A stretch of 64,000 nucleotides of DNA, taken from Candidatus Aminicenantes bacterium (lineage in GTDB: Bacteria; Acidobacteriota; Aminicenantia; UBA2199). The DNA lies in contig JAPKZK010000020.1 in assembly GCA_026393835.1 (NCBI GenBank), positions 13,034 to 77,033 on the forward strand. The letters run 5' to 3'. Shown here piece by piece: positions 1,467-12,554 of this stretch (positions within the stretch are counted from its first letter, which is position 1; every line of letters starts with the position of its first letter). The notes beneath the pieces are model-generated. The model was not told the origin of the DNA and made no database searches. It saw only the letters and a program-made list of their open reading frames with translations. The position numbers and the translations under genes were made by a program.

Positions 1467-2066
1467 ATGGGATTAGCATTGAGAAAAGAAGTAGAAAGAT
1501 TTACCTATGGCGATTATCTATCATGGGATGATAGCGAGCGTTGGGAAATTATCGGAGGGGAAGTTTACAACATGACTCCGGCCCCCAATACCGCTCATCA
1601 ATCGATTCTCGTGGAATTGATTTTTCAGTTCAAAAGTCAACTTCAAGGAAAACCTTGTCAGGTTTTCGCTGCTCCTTTCGATGTTCGTTTGCCGGTGGGG
1701 AAGGAGAAAGAGGAAGATATCGAAAACATTGTGCAGCCGGATATTATGATTGTTTGCGACGCAAAGAAATTGGATAAAAAGGGCTGCCTGGGGGCGCCGG
1801 ATATGATAATCGAAATTCTTTCTCCATCTACTTCCAGGAAGGACCGGAAGGAGAAGTTTTTTCTTTACGAGCGGGTGGGGGTCAAAGAGTATTGGTTAGT
1901 ATCGCCGGATGAAAAATTGGTAGAGGTTTTTCGGTTGGGTCCCGGGGGAAAGTATGGCCGGCCGGAGATATATTGTGAGACCGACAAGGTTCAATTGGGT
2001 ATTCTCAAAGAAATCACCATCGATTTAAGTGCGGTTTTCAGTATTGAAGTTTCAATATCAAAATAA
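1467..2066 (+). CDS. Uma2-family (DUF820) putative restriction-endonuclease-like protein
   Basis: 199 aa. N-terminal FTYGDYLSWDDSERWEIIGGEVY..MTPAPNTAHQ and PDIMIVC...PDMIIEILSPST..D...K...Y...GVKEYWLV are typical of the Uma2 PD-(D/E)xK-like family. Confidence 0.8.
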   Translation: MGLALRKEVERFTYGDYLSWDDSERWEIIGGEVYNMTPAPNTAHQSILVELIFQFKSQLQGKPCQVFAAPFDVRLPVGKEKEEDIENIVQPDIMIVCDAKKLDKKGCLGAPDMIIEILSPSTSRKDRKEKFFLYERVGVKEYWLVSPDEKLVEVFRLGPGGKYGRPEIYCETDKVQLGILKEITIDLSAVFSIEVSISK

Positions 2067-5440: not shown

Positions 5441-5492
5441 AATTTTGGGAAGTCCAGAAACCTTTTTATAAAAAGGTTTCTGGTCGTCGAAG
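5441..5492 (+). terminator. Conserved hairpin element, copy 1 (AAAAnTTTGGGAAGTCCAGAAACC..loop..GGTTTCTGGTCGTCGAAG), probable intrinsic terminator
   Basis: A perfect 14-bp stem ccagaaaccttttt/aaaaaggtttctgg lies directly after the stop of 2139..5435. The same flanks recur at 18167..18243 (opposite strand), and a variant is at 62305..62362. Confidence 0.55.
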
Positions 5493-5870: not shown

Positions 5871-6284
5871 TTATTTTAAAAAATTGGAAATACTTTCACT
5901 TAATTCTTTTTTTTGAGATGCCTTTATTTCACATTGCCATATGATCATATATTTCCAGCAAAGGAGTTCCAGCCGCTTATAATTCGCTCTGTCTCTTTCG
6001 GCATTACCGGTAAGTTTTTTTTTCCAGAAATCGGCATTTGCAGTAGGTAAAGCGGAACGTTTACATCCCTCATGCCCATGCCAAAAACAACCGTGCACAA
6101 ATATTACTTTTTTATACTTTGTAAAAACCAAATCCGGGTTTCCCGGCAAATCTTTTTTATGTAAGCGGTATCGATATCCCATTGAGTGAACCAATTTCCG
6201 GATAAAGACTTCCTGTTTTGAACCTGTCGGTTTAATTTTTCTCATTATTTCCGAGCGTTTTTCGGGTGGGAAAATATCAGTCAC
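5871..6284 (-). CDS. vsr: Very-short-patch repair endonuclease Vsr
   Basis: 137 aa. RSEIMRKIK, PDLVF...KVIFVHGCFWHGH and ...FW..K...N..RD match Vsr. It overlaps the upstream C5-MTase by 8 nt, the classical dcm-vsr arrangement. Confidence 0.9.
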   Translation of the reverse strand: MTDIFPPEKRSEIMRKIKPTGSKQEVFIRKLVHSMGYRYRLHKKDLPGNPDLVFTKYKKVIFVHGCFWHGHEGCKRSALPTANADFWKKKLTGNAERDRANYKRLELLCWKYMIIWQCEIKASQKKELSESISNFLK

Positions 6285-7305
6285 GGTACTTCTCTAAATG
6301 GGAGATTATGTTTTTACTTTGAATATAGCTGAACTTCGGCGGTAAGGCATTTCCGATCAATAAGGCTATCGAGGTTTTGGATATATTCGTGGGGAATCGA
6401 TAATCTGGCGGAAACGTCTGCAATAAAGATGCTTCCCTGGCGGAAATAACCCGGTTCTCTTCCGGGTGTAAGAATCTGCCTTTGGAGGGATTCAAGCACC
6501 CGCTTGTTATTGTAGATGAGTAATCATCCCATCGTAAACGTCCATATACATCCTTAAATCCGACATTTTCTCGTTTATGGCATTTCAATATGAATTCAGC
6601 CGGTAAATCTGTCCTACTTCCCCCGTTTTTCGGTGTTTTTGTAATAATTTCCTTAACTTTTTGGGTATGGTTCGCCGTTATTCCATGAACGGGATCGTCG
6701 GTTCCTTGAACCGACTCAATGCCCCCGATAGTGTCTCTGACGGTCTTTCTTTCGCCGGTACCTTCGGCAACTTTCAATTCCAACTTTAGGGTCTTCAGCG
6801 CACCGACCAGTACGAGCCTTTTTCTTCTCTGCGGAACTCCGTAGGATTGGATATCCACAATCTCGACATTGACGGTATAGTATTTTTTAAGTTCGTCGCA
6901 CATTTCTTTAAAAAGGTCATAGTCTTTTAAACCCGGTACATTTTCCATCATAATTGTCGCGGGTTTTAAGCCTTTCACGAATCTTAAGAATTCCATAATC
7001 AGGTCGTTACGTTCGTCGGGGGCCGCTTTTTTTCGGTTGAGTCTTTTCATGGAGGAGAAGCCCTGGCAAGGCGGGCACCCAGCCAATAGGTGCGGTCTTT
7101 TACCGATCAATATCTTTTTCACGTCTTTTATTTTTAATTTCCGAATATCTTCTTGTAGAACCGTTGTTTCTGGGTGGTTCAGTTTATAAGTATTGACGGC
7201 ATCGGGGTCGATTTCGACGGCCAGTTCTACAGAAAACCCTGCCTGTTTCAAGCCTTCCGAAAGGCCACCGCAGCCGGAAAATAAATCAATTGCCGTGTAT
7301 CTCAT
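6277..7305 (-). CDS. dcm: DNA (cytosine-5)-methyltransferase
   Basis: 342 aa with motif I IDLFSGCGGLSEGL, motif IV GCPPCQGFS, motif VI MENVPGL, motif VIII QRRKRLVLVG and a C-terminal GNALPP. Confidence 0.9.
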   Translation of the reverse strand: MRYTAIDLFSGCGGLSEGLKQAGFSVELAVEIDPDAVNTYKLNHPETTVLQEDIRKLKIKDVKKILIGKRPHLLAGCPPCQGFSSMKRLNRKKAAPDERNDLIMEFLRFVKGLKPATIMMENVPGLKDYDLFKEMCDELKKYYTVNVEIVDIQSYGVPQRRKRLVLVGALKTLKLELKVAEGTGERKTVRDTIGGIESVQGTDDPVHGITANHTQKVKEIITKTPKNGGSRTDLPAEFILKCHKRENVGFKDVYGRLRWDDYSSTITSGCLNPSKGRFLHPEENRVISAREASLLQTFPPDYRFPTNISKTSIALLIGNALPPKFSYIQSKNIISHLEKYRD

Positions 7306-8770
7306 TTTCGAATATCTTTTTAAAATTTTTGGAAATTAAATCGGATACAACCTTCGGATAGTCTGGGGTTCCGTATCCGGATATTGTACTGAAAATATGC
7401 TGGATAAGGGGCGTTAAAAAGGGTTCGGATATTGTCGCGATTCTATTGAATTTGAAATCTCCAGCATATTTAAGGCTTCTTTCTTTTTTAGGAGTCGGAT
7501 TACCGTCTTCTTTCAATTCAATTTTTTGATTCATTAATTCTTGTGGGAAGAGTGAAAAATCTTTATAACCATTACTGCATTTTAGAAATGGTAATATCAA
7601 CATCCCTTTGATATATTCCGGGGAGGCTGAAAAGGAATTGAATTTTGCGTTGTCCATTAGTTTTTTTTTTTCTCGGGTCAGTGTGATTTGTTTTTTTAAA
7701 TGTTCATTGTCATTCTGTATTTCATGTATAGGGAGTAAATTTATATATCCGTAATTTTTGTGCCAAAATCTTGCCAAATCGCAATCGGCGGTAACGACTA
7801 TAAAGAATTTATTATCTTGTTCGAATATATCGCCCTTTCTGACGATATCGTCACTCGGGTTATAATAGAGCCTATATGCCCACAATTCTTGGGATATTTT
7901 ATCAATATTGGTCTTATTGTCGACTGGAAATTTACTCCGAGTATGTTCTAAGGCCGAAGATATTACATTATTTCTTATTTTTTCAGAAATCAAATCAAGC
8001 AATTGTTCCGATATTTCTCGATTTATCCCGCTATTTTTAAGGAATGCACATAATTCATCATCACAGACTAGATTGCCTTTTATCTTCTCTCCAATCATGT
8101 TTTTTAAATCGTCACTTATTTGTTCACCATTCCCCCCTAAAAGCTGCAACGTATCGTCAATATGCAATTCTCCCAATCGAATCAGTATCCTGTCCAATGC
8201 ATTTACCGTAGTTTTTCTTAATTGGCTACCGAATTTGAAAGAGAAATTCTCTTTATATAGAGCTCTTATTTTCGTCATTAGTTCAGTTGGGCTCGTTGAG
8301 TCTTTATTTAAATTGAGTTTATCGACATATTCCAATCTTTTTCTAAAACATTTAAATACATTATTATCTATTATTTTCTTAATTTCAATCTCTTTGTCGG
8401 CTCCTGAATAGATATATATATAAGAATAGCACTTATTTAATATTTCAAGTAATTTTTTTTCCTGGTCAATCGTAGGGGAAAAATCCCAATCGAAAATGAT
8501 GATTTCAACTCTAAGTAATTCTTTTTCATGGCTGTTTAAAAAAAACTCCGGATGGGTAAATGCATAAACATTCCAAATATAATCATTGCCTTCTTTCTCA
8601 TTCAAAAGTTTTGTAAATAATTCATATAAAGGAATCTCTTTTCCCCAATCCGCTTCTTCACTCAACAGTTTATGTAAAACAATTGAATTTAATAACGAAT
8701 TTTTTTTTATGTTGTGTGCGGCTGCAACTTGATTAATGCCGTCATCTATTATGCAGATTGAATATTGCAT
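7286..8770 (-). CDS. Hypothetical protein with an N-terminal receiver (REC)-like module and an uncharacterised C-terminal half (candidate effector)
   Basis: 494 aa, very AT-rich. ICIIDDG (aa 5-11), EIIIFDWDF (aa 89-97), YIYIYSGA (S122) and K140/K144 reproduce the DD...D...S/T...K spacing of receiver domains, with a ~40-aa insert after beta1. The C-terminal region contains GDIF..(9)..FIVVTADCDLARFWHK. I recognise no known nuclease family. It overlaps the neighbouring genes on both sides. Confidence 0.45.
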   Translation of the reverse strand: MQYSICIIDDGINQVAAAHNIKKNSLLNSIVLHKLLSEEADWGKEIPLYELFTKLLNEKEGNDYIWNVYAFTHPEFFLNSHEKELLRVEIIIFDWDFSPTIDQEKKLLEILNKCYSYIYIYSGADKEIEIKKIIDNNVFKCFRKRLEYVDKLNLNKDSTSPTELMTKIRALYKENFSFKFGSQLRKTTVNALDRILIRLGELHIDDTLQLLGGNGEQISDDLKNMIGEKIKGNLVCDDELCAFLKNSGINREISEQLLDLISEKIRNNVISSALEHTRSKFPVDNKTNIDKISQELWAYRLYYNPSDDIVRKGDIFEQDNKFFIVVTADCDLARFWHKNYGYINLLPIHEIQNDNEHLKKQITLTREKKKLMDNAKFNSFSASPEYIKGMLILPFLKCSNGYKDFSLFPQELMNQKIELKEDGNPTPKKERSLKYAGDFKFNRIATISEPFLTPLIQHIFSTISGYGTPDYPKVVSDLISKNFKKIFENEIHGN

Positions 8771-11472
8771 TAGTTGACCTCCTCCTTTTCGGCTGGTACT
8801 TTTTCAAAATCCAGAGTAAATTGAGCTCCTTTCATCTCCGGCAATCTATTCTTCGAGGACGTCCGGTATATATCGCCTTTCATAGATTGCATATAATGTT
8901 TACAAATATACAAACCAAGTCCACTCGGTGGAATTTTCAAACTGTAACCGGGTTCAAAGAGATAGGGCAATATCGCATTGTGAATACCGGAACCACTGTC
9001 GGTAAATAATAAGGTCCTATATTTTGAATCAAATTTAATTCGTATTATTTTTTCCATCGATTCGTCCTCGGTATCCAGCCAATATAAACTATTGTCGAAC
9101 AAATTTGAAAAAATTTGGACTATTTGTCCATATCGAGCGTAAATGAAAAAATCATCAGTGTCTTCAATTTCCGCCATGATATTGGCTTGCTCGAGCTTAT
9201 TTTTATAAATATCCAAGACATATTCCAATGCGTCAAATAGCTTAAACTTCACTTTTTTTTCGCTTTTTATCGCGCGTAATGGACTTAATCTTTTTAACTC
9301 TGAGTTAAGAGATGCTGATGACTCAACTATTTCCTTCATTTTTTCTTCATTAAATGGTTTTTTCTTAAGGGCTTCGGTTATTCCGTAGTAAAAATTTGAC
9401 GTAATTTTTGCAATTTCATGAATCGATACGGCTATCGCCAAACCGAAACCAGCTTGTTCCGTAAGTAGTTCTTTCTGTTGATTGATAAGTTTAAGACTGT
9501 CTCCTAAATTTTTAAGTGATAATTCGAGATTTATCAATTTTTCTTTTCTTTCTGAAGGTTCACCCATCTCTGCAAGAATGCCATGAGGATCTTCTTCAAT
9601 TGGATAATTATTTTTGATATTATTGACGAGAGTCTCATTTTGCTTCACAAAAGCCCTTAACTTCTTAGGATCTCTTATGATATCTTTCGTTAACGAATAA
9701 TAACTATCGCGTTTTCCTTGAAAATGTATCTCGACAAGAAGAATTACAGCTTTGGTAAGATTAATAAAATCATTATATGCGTCATTCTTTATTAGCCCCT
9801 CTCGATCGGTTTTATCTATTAAATTCAAATTATTGGTTTGATCCAATTCGATATTTCCAATCATATTGTAATAAGACATATGTTTTCCTTTTTTAATGTG
9901 CCTATTTGCAAGATCGAGCCAATCTATTTGCGCTCCCCATTCCGCCGGAAAGATATTAATGCCGTCTCTAAATACAGATATTCCGCCGAAATGATATAAA
10001 TAATCCAGCATTAAATCTTGATTAGGACCGTCAATCCAAGGAGGTTTTCTATACCAGACATCCAAATGCATAAAAAAAGCCCCACATTTAGGTTTTCTAA
10101 ACTTGTCGCTTAAAACGGCTTTCCATTTTGGCGATTCTATTTTTTTTAAATCAAAATTATTGTCTTTAATAACTTCCTCAGGCATAGGAACGGCCGGTTG
10201 CGGAGGTTTAAATTTAAGTGTATAATCCAATATACCTTCTTCAGTAACCAAACCGTCGAAGCTAAAAACAGGTTCAAATTCTTCCGAGATCAAACTGTCA
10301 GGCAAATCAGTATATTGAGGGCATTCTAAATAAGCCCGAAAAAATTCTTTTTTTGTCCCAGGGTGCGGATTGGGAGAGTTTAATCTTAAAATAGATAGAT
10401 TAAGTTCTTCAAGTGCGGTCTTATCCCAATGAAAGCCATCTCGTCCACCGAAAATGATCATTTGAGTGCCGGAACCCTTTATCCCATAATCACGAGTAAT
10501 TTTTTGACGCGTTAAACTTACACCGATCGAACTGAGATCGACTGTGGCATTCGATATGCAATCGAATTTATCCCAATCTATTTTTAAGACATATTCATAA
10601 TCCAATTCTTTTATTTTAGTATTAATGATCAGGTTCTTCCCCAGCCTATGCGAAGCGAATCTTCCGACTCCTTTTTCTCCCAATGGGATACGAGTTTTAG
10701 ATTCTTTTTTCAATTGCTTGGTTAAGCTGTCATAAGTCCCCAATGTTCCGGAGTCGAGAGCTTTTTGTCTTTCTCTTTTTATTTGTTCTTTGACATTGGT
10801 TTTAAGAGTCGATGCGGGGCGAAGCCAACCGACTTCAATAACTTCTTTCGTCATCCCGACTCCATCGTCTTCTACGACTATGACTGGTCCGTCATATTCA
10901 TTGAACTCATACATACTCTCGTCGATTATATGAAGCCCTTCGATTTTTTCAATTCTCACCCGGCAATAGCTTGCTTGTGCATCGTAGGCATTTTTTATCA
11001 ATTCGAGAATCCCTACTTTTTCAGAAGCGATCAATTGCTCACCCAATACTTTTATTAAATGGGCGTCGGATTTGAAATTTAATTGAATTCCCCCGTCGAG
11101 ACATATTTCGTCCAGGTCTTTTTCGGGTATTCTGCGAACCGCATCCTGGGGGTTGTAATGGGGCGCTGTTTCCCGCGGTCCTTCTTCGGTATCGAATGGA
11201 ACCGGGTTTGAGAACGGTTTAAAATCGCTTATCTCTACAAAATAAAAACCTTCCTCTCGTTGATCTTTAAAGGGCGGTTTCTTGATTTTCCCGTAACCGT
11301 AATATTCTCCCTTACCGTTTCGCTTCGGCTCATAATAAACAAACTCGATTACAAGTGCAGATAAAAGTTTGAGATACTTTCCCGGGAAATGGTAGAATTT
11401 TCCGACGAAATCGTTATATTCAGAGCCTTCTCTGCATTGGTCGAGCACTAAGAAGTTGTTTTTTGCGTCCAT
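8770..11472 (-). CDS. Three-module protein: N-terminal reader-like domain, MORC/HATPase_c_3-type GHKL ATPase, and a C-terminal HisKA-like plus HATPase_c histidine-kinase module
   Basis: 900 aa. GHKL module 1 has ELIKNAYDA (N-box, aa ~157), VEDDGVGM (G1) and GEKGVGRFA (G2). The C-terminal module has an H-box AVSIHEIAKI (His685, nt 9418..9420), an N-box IFSNLFDNSLYW, G1 DSGSGI and G2 SGLGLYICKHY. The N-terminal ~100 aa read KFYHFPGKY...FVYYEPKR...YYGYGKI...FYFVEISDFKPFSNPVPF. Confidence 0.6.
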   Translation of the reverse strand: MDAKNNFLVLDQCREGSEYNDFVGKFYHFPGKYLKLLSALVIEFVYYEPKRNGKGEYYGYGKIKKPPFKDQREEGFYFVEISDFKPFSNPVPFDTEEGPRETAPHYNPQDAVRRIPEKDLDEICLDGGIQLNFKSDAHLIKVLGEQLIASEKVGILELIKNAYDAQASYCRVRIEKIEGLHIIDESMYEFNEYDGPVIVVEDDGVGMTKEVIEVGWLRPASTLKTNVKEQIKRERQKALDSGTLGTYDSLTKQLKKESKTRIPLGEKGVGRFASHRLGKNLIINTKIKELDYEYVLKIDWDKFDCISNATVDLSSIGVSLTRQKITRDYGIKGSGTQMIIFGGRDGFHWDKTALEELNLSILRLNSPNPHPGTKKEFFRAYLECPQYTDLPDSLISEEFEPVFSFDGLVTEEGILDYTLKFKPPQPAVPMPEEVIKDNNFDLKKIESPKWKAVLSDKFRKPKCGAFFMHLDVWYRKPPWIDGPNQDLMLDYLYHFGGISVFRDGINIFPAEWGAQIDWLDLANRHIKKGKHMSYYNMIGNIELDQTNNLNLIDKTDREGLIKNDAYNDFINLTKAVILLVEIHFQGKRDSYYSLTKDIIRDPKKLRAFVKQNETLVNNIKNNYPIEEDPHGILAEMGEPSERKEKLINLELSLKNLGDSLKLINQQKELLTEQAGFGLAIAVSIHEIAKITSNFYYGITEALKKKPFNEEKMKEIVESSASLNSELKRLSPLRAIKSEKKVKFKLFDALEYVLDIYKNKLEQANIMAEIEDTDDFFIYARYGQIVQIFSNLFDNSLYWLDTEDESMEKIIRIKFDSKYRTLLFTDSGSGIHNAILPYLFEPGYSLKIPPSGLGLYICKHYMQSMKGDIYRTSSKNRLPEMKGAQFTLDFEKVPAEKEEVN

Positions 11473-11618: not shown

Positions 11619-11915
11619 CTACGTACATCGGGTATTGGAATATTTCCGTAAAGTAATGAATTTTGTCGGTCTTCCAAAATCCCAATTCCCGGCGGCTTCC
11701 TTAACCAATGGCGAAGGGTCCGGGAGATTGTCTTTGAATTTATTATAGGTATCGATAACCGCGTCTTTGGTGTTTTCAAGGACGCAGTCCATACGGCGCA
11801 AAACCACGAAAGGCAGTATCACATCGCCATATTCATGCTGTTTAAACGCGCCCCTTAAGATATCATCCGCCACCTGCCGGATAAAATTGGCCTTATCCTT
11901 GAAATTGTTCATCAA
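11619..11915 (-). pseudogene. hsdM: Truncated N-terminal fragment of a type I R-M methyltransferase (HsdM-like)
   Basis: KANFIRQVADDILRGAFKQHEYGDVILPFVVLRRMDCVLENTKDAV matches the conserved N-terminus of HsdM / N6-adenine MTases. The frame terminates after ~98 aa and no catalytic domain follows. Confidence 0.7.
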
Positions 11916-12041
11916 GACCTCTCTTGTAAAATATTATTAGAAAGCATTGCACCACCTTTTGCAATTAAAATAAAGTTAGCCGCGAAGAACGCGAAGGACC
12001 GCGAAGAGAGAAAAATTTTGCCTGTCTCCTTCTCCTTTTCC

Positions 12042-12067
12042 GTAGGGGCAGGCCCCCGTGTCTGCCC
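12042..12067. repeat. GTAGGG-hairpin REP-like element (gtaggggcaggc-ccccgt-gtctgccc)
   Basis: Imperfect 8-bp stem preceded by GTAGGG. Related copies are at 49588..49613 (inverted orientation, perfect stem) and 55809..55872 (twin copy). Confidence 0.6.
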
Positions 12068-12158
12068 GATTTTGGAAATAAAAAAGCGATAATTGTTAAT
12101 TGTTCTGACCTCTTTACCATTTTCCCCAGGAACATGGCATTTTCCAAAAGCGCCGCGA

Positions 12159-12305
12159 CCATTCCCGCATCTGCCGGCGCCATTCCCGCGGTTGCCGTGG
12201 CCATTCCCGCACCTGCCGGGACCATTCCCGCACCTGCCGGGACCATTCCCGCATCTGCCGGGGCCATGTTTACGATTGCCGGCGCCATGTGTCAGGGAGT
12301 AGGCG
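12159..12305. repeat. Tandem array of a 21-bp unit (ccattcccgcacctgccggga), 5 good and 2 degenerate copies
   Basis: Units start at 12159, 12180, 12201, 12222 and 12243, followed by two decayed units. ORFs on both strands across it (GNGPGRC / PFPHLPG heptads) have no start or RBS context and are probably artefacts of the 21-nt period. Confidence 0.85.
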
Positions 12306-12309
12306 GACA

Positions 12310-12365
12310 TTGGTCATTGGTCATTAACAATTAACCATTAACAATTGGCAATTAACAATTATCCC
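12310..12365. repeat. Heptanucleotide microsatellite (cattggt/cattaac/aattaac/aattggc, about 8 units)
   Basis: The sequence reads cattggtcattggtcattaacaattaaccattaacaattggcaattaacaatt when read directly. Confidence 0.8.
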
Positions 12366-12428
12366 TTTTCCTTGTCCATAATAGTAATAAATTTGCCTCT
12401 CCCCTTCTCCTTCTTATTATCAGCGCAA

Positions 12429-12554
12429 TAGTTTTCCCGCGCACAAATATAGTTTCCCCACGCACAGAAATAGTTCCGCCGCGCACAGATGTAGTTTTCC
12501 CGTGCAACGATAATGACCTCCCGCACAACAAAATAGTCATTAAATGCAGCGCCC
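12429..12554. repeat. Second 21-bp-phased degenerate tandem array (tagttttcccgcgcacaaata-like, about 6 units)
   Basis: The tag anchor recurs at 12429, 12450, 12471, 12492 and 12534, which is exact 21-nt phasing with one decayed unit at 12513. It shares a ttcccgc core with the 12159 array. Confidence 0.75.

Follow-up and report, generated by a model that had tools for sequence, protein, structure and literature searches.

A DNA methylase-linked histidine kinase and receiver cassette with a predicted MazF/PemK-fold output domain in Candidatus Aminicenantes

Results and discussion

A four-gene cassette linking a putative phosphorelay to DNA methylation

We analysed a four-gene cassette on the minus strand of a 64,000-nucleotide stretch of DNA from Candidatus Aminicenantes bacterium (GenBank assembly GCA_026393835.1, contig JAPKZK010000020.1, positions 13,034 to 77,033; hereafter "the window", numbered from its first letter). 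The cassette encodes a sensor protein of 900 amino acids (aa), a 494-aa receiver protein, a Dcm-type C5 cytosine methyltransferase and a Vsr endonuclease (Table 1). Sequence comparisons and predicted structures lead us to a reading to which we give about an even chance, namely that the cassette would be a methylation-linked phosphorelay gating an effector of toxin fold, and that it represents a divergent member of the HEF_HK/Response_reg_2 family in the restriction-enzyme position of a mobile module resembling a restriction-modification (R-M) system. The system that an earlier note on this DNA had pointed out is not an undescribed kind, as the architecture and its link to C5 methyltransferase and Vsr genes were published in 2021 (PMC8011034) and the related Ambrosia system was validated in 2025. 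The window cassette is therefore a divergent clade of an already described kind, and what is new is the prediction of a MazF/PemK-fold effector together with the conservation pattern.

Calling of open reading frames (ORFs) placed the four genes at 5871-11472, and the overlaps reported in the earlier note were exact to the nucleotide: 1 nucleotide between the 900-aa and 494-aa genes (TAATG at 8770, with a Shine-Dalgarno-like GGAGGAGG run just upstream), 20 nucleotides between the 494-aa gene and dcm (7286-7305), and 8 nucleotides between dcm and vsr (6277-6284). Homologous cassettes (e.g., L001, L017, and L028) also have tight or overlapping junctions, so the packing of the genes is conserved and not due to chance. 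The identities proposed for the two smaller proteins were borne out, as both passed the curated Pfam and NCBIfam cut-offs: Dcm matched PF00145 with 199 bits and TIGR00675 with 161 bits and carries the FxGxG, PCQ (79), and ENV (121) motifs, and Vsr matched PF03852 with 105 bits and TIGR00632 with 135 bits against a cut-off of 97.85.

Table 1. Genes of the cassette and domains of its two large proteins, in window coordinates
Feature	Position	Strand	Assignment or basis
vsr	5871..6284	-	Vsr very-short-patch-repair endonuclease
dcm	6277..7305	-	C5 cytosine DNA methyltransferase, Dcm-type
494-aa protein gene	7286..8770	-	receiver + predicted C-terminal MazF/PemK-fold domain
MazF/PemK(CcdB)-fold domain, residues ~305-494, presumed effector	7289..7858	-	AlphaFold model + Foldseek
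All-helical linker, residues ~156-304	7859..8305	-	model helices 160-301
REC domain, residues 1-155	8306..8770	-	AlphaFold model + Foldseek
900-aa sensor protein gene	8770..11472	-	N-terminal domain + paraMORC-type GHKL ATPase + middle region + DHp + kinase CA domain
Histidine-kinase catalytic ATP-binding (CA) domain	8773..9252	-	PF02518
DHp (H-box) helices	9253..9552	-	phospho-acceptor candidate H685-E686
Middle region, residues ~341-640	9553..10452	-	presumed transducer/S5-like part of paraMORC module
GHKL (Bergerat-fold) ATPase, MORC/paraMORC type, residues ~129-340	10453..11088	-	PF13589 at 153-303
N-terminal domain, residues 1-128	11089..11472	-	fold unassigned, possible PUA/EVE-like reader

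The receiver protein ends in a predicted MazF/PemK-fold domain

None of the 102 homologues of the 494-aa protein carries a name, and a sequence search of the PDB with this protein returned no match. Its AlphaFold model, built on an alignment of 99 sequences, was obtained with a predicted local distance difference test score (pLDDT) of 90.1 and a predicted template modelling score (pTM) of 0.82. The N-terminal part of this model has the (beta-alpha)5 topology of receivers with an enlarged alpha1 region, and Foldseek matched it in the PDB to the receivers PhoP (1mvo), HupR (2jk1), PmrA (9of8), CheY4 (4h60), and RR468 at a probability of 1.0 and TM-scores (TMt) of 0.6-0.7. The ends of beta1, beta3, beta4, and beta5 carry D9/D10, D94, S122, and K151, respectively, and D96 is also present; D94 and K151 are invariant in the 99 homologues, with serine or threonine at position 122. 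As far as the model goes, the receiver fold is real, in agreement with the receiver N-terminus proposed earlier, and the protein is not an ordinary type II restriction endonuclease devoid of a REC fold. The linker behind the receiver contains a conserved NFSFKFG motif (F176, S177, F178) and the conserved residues W297 and R300, and many homologues are about 40 residues shorter in this region.

Because receiver matches crowded out the Foldseek list of the full-length protein, residues 283-494 were modelled alone (pLDDT 91.8). Forty-eight of the top 50 PDB matches to this model were MazF/PemK toxins (probability 0.95-1.0, TMt 0.52-0.69), from Escherichia coli, B. subtilis, S. aureus, M. tuberculosis, Deinococcus, and Klebsiella, and the top seven matches in BFVD, an independent viral library, comprised one unnamed entry, five PemK-like proteins, and one annotated endoribonuclease. 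On the basis of these models, residues ~305-494 are confidently predicted to form an SH3-like barrel with the strand order of MazF, i.e., a MazF/PemK/CcdB fold. The effector, which the earlier note had left unspecified, is thereby narrowed to a predicted MazF/PemK-fold domain fused to the receiver.

The predicted domain shares with the MazF, PemK, Kid, and CcdB toxins its fold, its strand order, and an N-terminal (R/K)-G-(D/E)-I motif ahead of a hydrophobic beta2 strand. It differs from MazF toxins in an insertion of about 40 residues, in two extra C-terminal helices, in its fusion to a receiver instead of pairing with a MazE-type antitoxin, and in an invariant residue set of its own (R300, D314, C330, W336, and F451, with D307, R311, K338, S379, and E449 near-invariant). 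A phmmer search over 1.84 billion representatives found the domain only in the receiver-fused architecture (216 matches), a look-up of the clusters of its distant matches yielded neither names nor organisms, and our literature search found no paper joining a receiver domain with a PemK-type output domain.

Two readings of the chemistry of this domain were considered and set aside. RNase activity of the MazF type was not adopted as fact, with the catalytic loop and residues missing; their absence indicates that the effector chemistry is probably not that of MazF. A PD-(D/E)xK reading of D314...D329-C330-D331...K338 was rejected, as the fold search pointed uniformly to MazF and not to restriction endonuclease folds.

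The earlier observation that no restriction nuclease could be recognised stood up, with no such family detected in the 494-aa or the 900-aa protein by Pfam, PADLOC, or NCBIfam, and no PD-(D/E)xK, HNH, GIY-YIG, or PLD signature in either. When compared with type II R-M systems, the cassette thus has the methylase and no known restriction endonuclease family or fold in any of its proteins. Neither a helix-turn-helix nor another DNA-binding output domain was detected in the 494-aa protein by Pfam, family, and structure searches.

The sensor protein fuses a paraMORC-type ATPase to a histidine-kinase core

Identical proteins are recorded from a Candidatus Aminicenantes metagenome-assembled genome (MAG), in which the protein with 100% identity to the 900-aa protein is annotated "sensor histidine kinase". 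Invariant columns were taken from an alignment of 38 homologues with 55-68% identity. Pfam assigned HATPase_c_3 (PF13589) to residues 153-303 and HATPase_c (PF02518) to residues 783-889 (61 bits), and NCBIfam gave generic kinase-domain similarity only, far under the cut-offs, for the large proteins. The three Bergerat motifs of the first domain are invariant (E157/N161/D164, motif I; D202-x-G204-x-G206, motif II; G265-E-K-G268-V-G270, motif III), as are the kinase boxes of the second (N790/N794, N box; D825-x-G827, G1; G851-L-G853, G2). Between the two ATPase domains, H685 and E686 are invariant in the 38 homologues. The family profile matched the solved histidine kinases ThkA, FixL/YF1, HK853, PhoQ, and AdeS, and its "vsvHEiak" segment aligned with the "HELNQ" H-box of YF1/FixL (4gcz), placing H685 on the H-box histidine. 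These intact ATPase and kinase motifs, the profile matches, and the alignment of H685 together identify the protein as a fusion of a MORC/paraMORC-type ATPase with a complete kinase core, in agreement with the GHKL ATPase and the kinase module that had been read from the sequence at the outset.

The middle region between the GHKL and DHp parts (residues 341-640) had no Pfam family match and is rich in invariant columns (e.g., W473, R475, G496, G497, S533-Y535, D553, T555, R557, G559, and N563). The N-terminal domain is aromatic- and glycine-rich, with invariant Y19, G24, Y27, H28, F29, Y46, G59, and G61. Two of 21 homologues gave a weak EVE (PF01878) match in this domain (best E 0.02) and no other signal was seen, and a search with the domain profile returned only fragments of its own protein family and no new architectures. 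A role of the N-terminal domain as a "reader" is a reasonable lead from sequence comparison, though unproven.

A fixed sensor and methylase pair with a changing output module

A scan with the kinase alignment over one genome per species yielded 267 kinase relatives, and 80 loci were taken for comparison, 69 of which were complete (i.e., the kinase gene was intact and 3 kb or more of sequence followed it downstream). The kinase-bearing loci came from Aminicenantes, Acidobacteriota, Bacteroidota, Patescibacteria, Chloroflexota, Planctomycetota, Alphaproteobacteria, Desulfobacterota, and several archaea. The co-occurrence check that had been suggested for these genes came out clearly: a receiver-protein gene lies directly downstream of the kinase gene and a close homologue of the C5 methylase Dcm accompanies the pair in 69/69 complete loci, with Vsr nearby in 45/69. 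Median identity to the window kinase was 53.6% (41 homologues in other genomes), and the corresponding medians for the other window proteins were 58.9% (Dcm) and 48% (Vsr), with the receiver protein reaching only 30%. Moreover, at 25 loci the partner was homologous in the receiver domain only and was followed by an unrelated tail and an extra ORF of about 175 aa. The strict linkage, the identities, and the 25 swapped loci indicate that sensor and methylase form a fixed pair whose output module evolves fast or is swappable, and such a combination of a fixed sensor and methylase with a fast-evolving or swapped receiver-effector is a pattern typical of conflict systems. A tblastn search with the receiver protein against 72,556 plasmids returned no match.

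The variant cassette, from 25 genomes that are mostly Bacteroidota, keeps the same kinase and Dcm and has a receiver protein of about 290 aa (L014, L015, L016, L021, L026, L027, L031, L032, and 17 more; e.g., L014:12742-14142). Its extra ORF is 170-183 aa long, with invariant H-T-N, G-G-E, and S-D-R-Y-G in the motifs CHTN(I/L)TGG, GGE, and SDRYG. The family profile of this ORF found no Pfam family or PDB match, and the ORF may encode an alternative effector.

Relationship to the HEF_HK/Response_reg_2 family

The families HEF_HK (PF19191) and Response_reg_2 (PF19192) were defined by Bellieny-Rabelo, Pretorius & Moleleki in 2021, who found 91.6% linkage between the two gene families, C5 methylases enriched nearby, Vsr adjoining the receiver-like gene, and descent from paraMORCs (PMC8011034). 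Their study was purely computational; it reported no other domain in the receiver protein and proposed signalling control of R-M (PMC8011034). The window cassette shares with this family the "group 1" architecture, i.e., a soluble kinase-like protein with an N-terminal HATPase_c_3 domain, an H-E DHp motif, and a C-terminal HATPase_c domain, as well as the adjacent receiver-like protein, the C5 methylase beside the pair, the nearby Vsr, and the paraMORC ancestry. It differs in the additional 128-residue N-terminal domain of the kinase and in its distribution, as the clade of the window consists mostly of uncultured Aminicenantes, Bacteroidota, Patescibacteria, Acidobacteriota, and archaea and not of Proteobacteria. 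A further difference concerns the C-terminal half of the receiver protein, which had no fold or role in PMC8011034 and for which we present a MazF/PemK-like model.

Weak PF19191 matches were found in 21/38 kinase homologues (best E 0.0016), and PF19192 matched 23/36 receiver homologues at E <= 1 (best 5.9e-7), with 3/102 carrying the domain as a precomputed annotation. The DHp-CA region of the window kinase matches, at E 1e-8, a bona fide HEF_HK protein of E. coli whose own score is above the Pfam threshold, and the window kinase is therefore a divergent relative. The receiver partner of this E. coli protein contains GTIFFDTESNKWYLCVSAACDL (G-x-I...YLCVSAACDL), which aligned to GDIFEQDNKFFIVVTADCDL (...FIVVTADCDL) of the window protein. 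At sequence level, this comparison and the motif GDFF...INIRPACDC of a gut-contig relative weakly suggest that a MazF-fold domain with a Cys-Asp motif may be common to the whole HEF_HK/Response_reg_2 superfamily.

Two further loci deserve description. The E. coli relative (L082:2738-6332, AJ304858.2) belongs to a "remnant integrative element" that adjoins prophage CP-1639, and has an integrase fragment as its neighbour; its HEF_HK protein has 614 aa and no N-terminal GHKL domain, its Response_reg_2 partner has 582 aa (109 bits), and there is no methylase between them. A human faecal contig labelled "Bacteriophage sp." (L081:764-5620, MT837790.1) encodes an N6/N4 methylase, a kinase-like protein with HATPase_c_3 and HATPase_c and without the N-terminal domain, and a 446-aa partner with the motif GDFF...INIRPACDC, and thus represents an adenine/N4-methylase version of the cassette design on a phage-labelled contig.

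Comparison with other known systems

As judged by analogy, Ambrosia is the nearest functional precedent for the window cassette. Its five genes code for an XRE regulator, an N6-adenine methylase, a kinase/HSP90-like ATPase, a receiver with a winged helix-turn-helix output, and a separate HNH nuclease, and a 2025 preprint showed it by experiment to be anti-phage, with every gene and the receiver aspartate required and with infection-induced expression (10.1101/2025.09.30.679545). Both have a kinase/ATPase and a receiver in one cluster with a DNA methylase, and Ambrosia is unlike classical type II R-M in its behaviour. Compared by gene content only, the window cassette differs in having a C5 methylase, Vsr, and a receiver fused to a MazF-fold domain and in lacking the XRE, HNH, and winged helix-turn-helix components.

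Among MORC-type systems, the paraMORCs of R-M operons typically have nuclease partners, and no kinase or receiver partners were described for them (Iyer, Abhiman & Aravind 2008, PMC2292703). Defence by the paraMORC3/Shedu protein VcSduA depends both on its GHKL ATPase and on the defence nuclease fused to it (PMC12137116). The window protein shares with MORC/paraMORC systems the N-terminal Bergerat ATPase with intact motifs, the cytosine methylase and Vsr as operon partners, and lateral mobility, and it differs in that its ATPase is fused to a histidine-kinase core, would signal to a separate receiver-effector, and has no nuclease or helicase partner.

The earlier note had also seen the logic of Detocs in the cassette. 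That system, whose description is credited to Rousset et al. 2023, reportedly comprises a TPR-type sensor kinase (DtcA), a buffer receiver (DtcB), and a receiver-PNP ATP-nucleosidase effector (DtcC), with no methylase. The likeness stands for the general working logic, a defensive phosphorelay that runs from an infection-sensing kinase to an effector fused to a receiver; beyond this, the cassette is not close to Detocs. Membership in Detocs was rejected, as there was no PADLOC match (v2.0.0, inclusion of Detocs models not confirmed), the window cassette has a single receiver protein and neither a PNP nor a TPR domain (Pfam), and its methylase, GHKL-MORC module, and Vsr are not part of Detocs.

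Genomic surroundings of the cassette

The cassette is horizontally acquired; its region is a low-GC island, with a guanine-plus-cytosine (GC) content of 32-42% where the flanks have 50-56%. The island borders are marked neither by a tRNA gene nor by direct repeats on either side, promoter and terminator scans of the locus performed no better than on shuffled sequence, and a search of E. coli genomes with the whole cassette gave no match. Directly upstream of the cassette and on the same strand, a 98-aa ORF (11619-11915, minus strand) covers only the first ~50 positions of HsdM_N (E 1.3e-12) and is, by its sequence, a truncated remnant of the type I R-M methylase gene hsdM, which suggests that the cassette inserted into an older R-M locus or took its place. 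The remaining neighbours encode a Ser/Thr kinase, an M64 peptidase, glycosyltransferases, and BNR/sortilin proteins.

Several other features were seen around the island. A gene for a Uma2-family "putative restriction endonuclease" (1467-2066, plus strand; PF05685, E 1.8e-36) lies a few kilobases from the cassette, with a large BNR/sortilin-repeat gene in between and no evident link to the cassette. The 435-nucleotide gap between the convergent BNR gene (end 5435) and vsr (end 5871) contains a near-perfect 20+20-nucleotide palindrome at 5449-5488, likely a bidirectional terminator, which the simple terminator scan did not flag. On the other side, three tandem arrays lie in the 1 kb that separates the island from the Ser/Thr kinase gene, at 12152-12267 (21 nucleotides x 5.5), 12323-12361 (7 nucleotides, ATTAACA, x 5.6), and 12428-12506 (21 nucleotides x 3.8), bracketed by a 34-nucleotide inverted repeat (12069-12102 / 12349-12382). 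ORF calling also gave frames at 11912-12310 that translate the first array as GNGPGRC repeats; these frames are probably spurious.

Proposed mechanism

In the reading that we favour, Dcm would methylate a specific cytosine motif on host DNA and Vsr would repair the T:G mismatches arising from deamination of 5-methylcytosine, as established for these protein families. The soluble 900-aa sensor may engage DNA through its paraMORC GHKL ATPase and its N-terminal domain and report the state of this DNA, most likely the presence of unmethylated target sites, either on incoming DNA or after loss of the cassette. Sensing would change autophosphorylation by the C-terminal kinase domain at H685, a residue that is in place for this role, and the phosphoryl group would then pass to D94 in the receiver fold of the 494-aa protein. 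Phosphorylation would relieve or impose autoinhibition of the fused domain of predicted MazF/CcdB fold, probably via receiver-driven dimerisation, since MazF toxins act as dimers. Once active, the effector would presumably harm nucleic-acid metabolism by RNA or DNA cleavage or by CcdB-like poisoning of a target, such that phages would be stopped or cells losing the methylase would be killed.

A more far-reaching form of this proposal is that the nuclease of R-M systems has been replaced by a phosphorelay-gated toxin throughout the superfamily, including the E. coli relatives, with the paraMORC-kinase reading methylation and a His-to-Asp transfer switching on a receiver-fused MazF/CcdB-fold effector that has its own Cys-containing active site. 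We put this forward tentatively and regard it, as a whole, as doubtful.

Several observations weigh against our reading and are collected here. With respect to family membership, the window 900-aa protein has no PF19191 match at E <= 1 and the window 494-aa protein has no PF19192 match, and PADLOC v2.0.0 (models up to 2023) found no family for either large protein at E <= 0.1. For the effector, hhalign with a MazF profile, whose alignment was checked first against PDB MazF entries, gave a weak match (E 0.007, probability 5%) that placed VRKGDI...FIVVTADC on RGDI...RPVVV of MazF, and the Pfam PemK family (PemK_toxin) gave no match to the 494-aa protein. The S1-S2 loop of MazF, which carries E24/R29, is missing, and residues vary across the family alignment at the position of T52; with these catalytic residues gone, the fold does not imply nuclease activity and the domain could be a binding module. 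For the sensor, the N-terminal domain of the window protein has no Pfam match, and the domain profile found nothing significant among PDB sequences (topoisomerase V at chance level only). This domain is also not indispensable, since a complete cassette in an Anaerolineales MAG (L071:6135-11530; kinase, 519-aa receiver protein, Dcm, and Vsr) has a kinase that starts at the GHKL domain, without the 128 N-terminal residues. Apart from the hsdM remnant, the immediate neighbours are no defence genes. Finally, the authors of the Ambrosia study favour transcriptional control by the two-component pair and report that the methylase does not protect phage DNA (10.1101/2025.09.30.679545), from which it follows that the logic in relatives may differ from classical self-marking.

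Alternative explanations

The position of the two large genes, where an R-M operon would have its restriction endonuclease beside Dcm and Vsr, and the usual pairing of paraMORCs with nucleases in such operons (PMC2292703) would also fit an ATP-dependent restriction complex. Kinase-paraMORC and receiver protein would then be the R component of a type II-like R-M system that cuts unmethylated DNA and leaves the host unharmed, phosphotransfer only licensing cleavage, and the cutting site would lie in the effector domain or at an unrecognised site in the middle region of the 900-aa protein, where many invariant polar residues have no assigned role. VcSduA restricts phage without killing its host (PMC12137116), and MazF of E. 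coli is able to bind an analogue of single-stranded DNA (5cr2, among our Foldseek matches). However, neither large protein carries any of the nuclease signatures searched for, and the predicted effector fold is that of toxins acting on RNA or gyrase and not of known restriction endonucleases, and we consider a restriction complex unlikely. The missing MazF catalytic residues would also fit a barrel that is a nucleic-acid- or protein-binding output instead of a toxin, and SH3-like barrels often bind nucleic acids. The pair would then be a regulatory two-component system of the Ambrosia type that responds to infection or stress by controlling the expression or activity of the methylase and Vsr, or of unlinked genes, consistent with the infection-induced expression and required receiver aspartate of Ambrosia (10.1101/2025.09.30.679545) and with the signalling control of R-M proposed in PMC8011034. 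Such a role appears distinctly unlikely to us, given that the receiver protein has no detected DNA-binding output domain, that translational coupling with dcm and vsr in one operon leaves little room for differential control, and that exchange of the effector region in 25 cassettes with kinase and Dcm fixed fits effectors better than a cognate operator-binding domain.

Strict linkage to Dcm, a fold from a toxin superfamily typical of plasmid addiction modules, the patchy distribution across distant phyla, the low-GC island, and the E. coli relative in a remnant integrative element could all be expected of a purely selfish addiction module with no anti-phage role. Here, the sensor would detect falling methylation after loss of the cassette and fire the toxin domain (i.e., post-segregational killing), as in some type II R-M systems. 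We judge this to be improbable as the sole function: no copy of the receiver protein was present on the 72,556 plasmids, the related Ambrosia defends against phage, and addiction and defence are in any case not mutually exclusive.

Implications

For the HEF_HK/Response_reg_2 family, the MazF/CcdB-fold prediction supplies a concrete effector candidate for the C-terminal half of the receiver protein, which previously had neither a fold nor a role. The contrast between a fixed sensor and methylase and a fast-evolving or swappable effector also offers a design rule for finding more such systems. If our reading is true, it would join epigenetic self-marking, MORC-type DNA sensing, and His-Asp signalling, which had not been linked before, and would add a new class of response-regulator output. 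In the more far-reaching form of the proposal, this would be the first receiver-controlled output domain of the MazF superfamily and would imply a methylation-dependent abortive-infection or addiction mechanism across the whole HEF_HK/Response_reg_2 superfamily.

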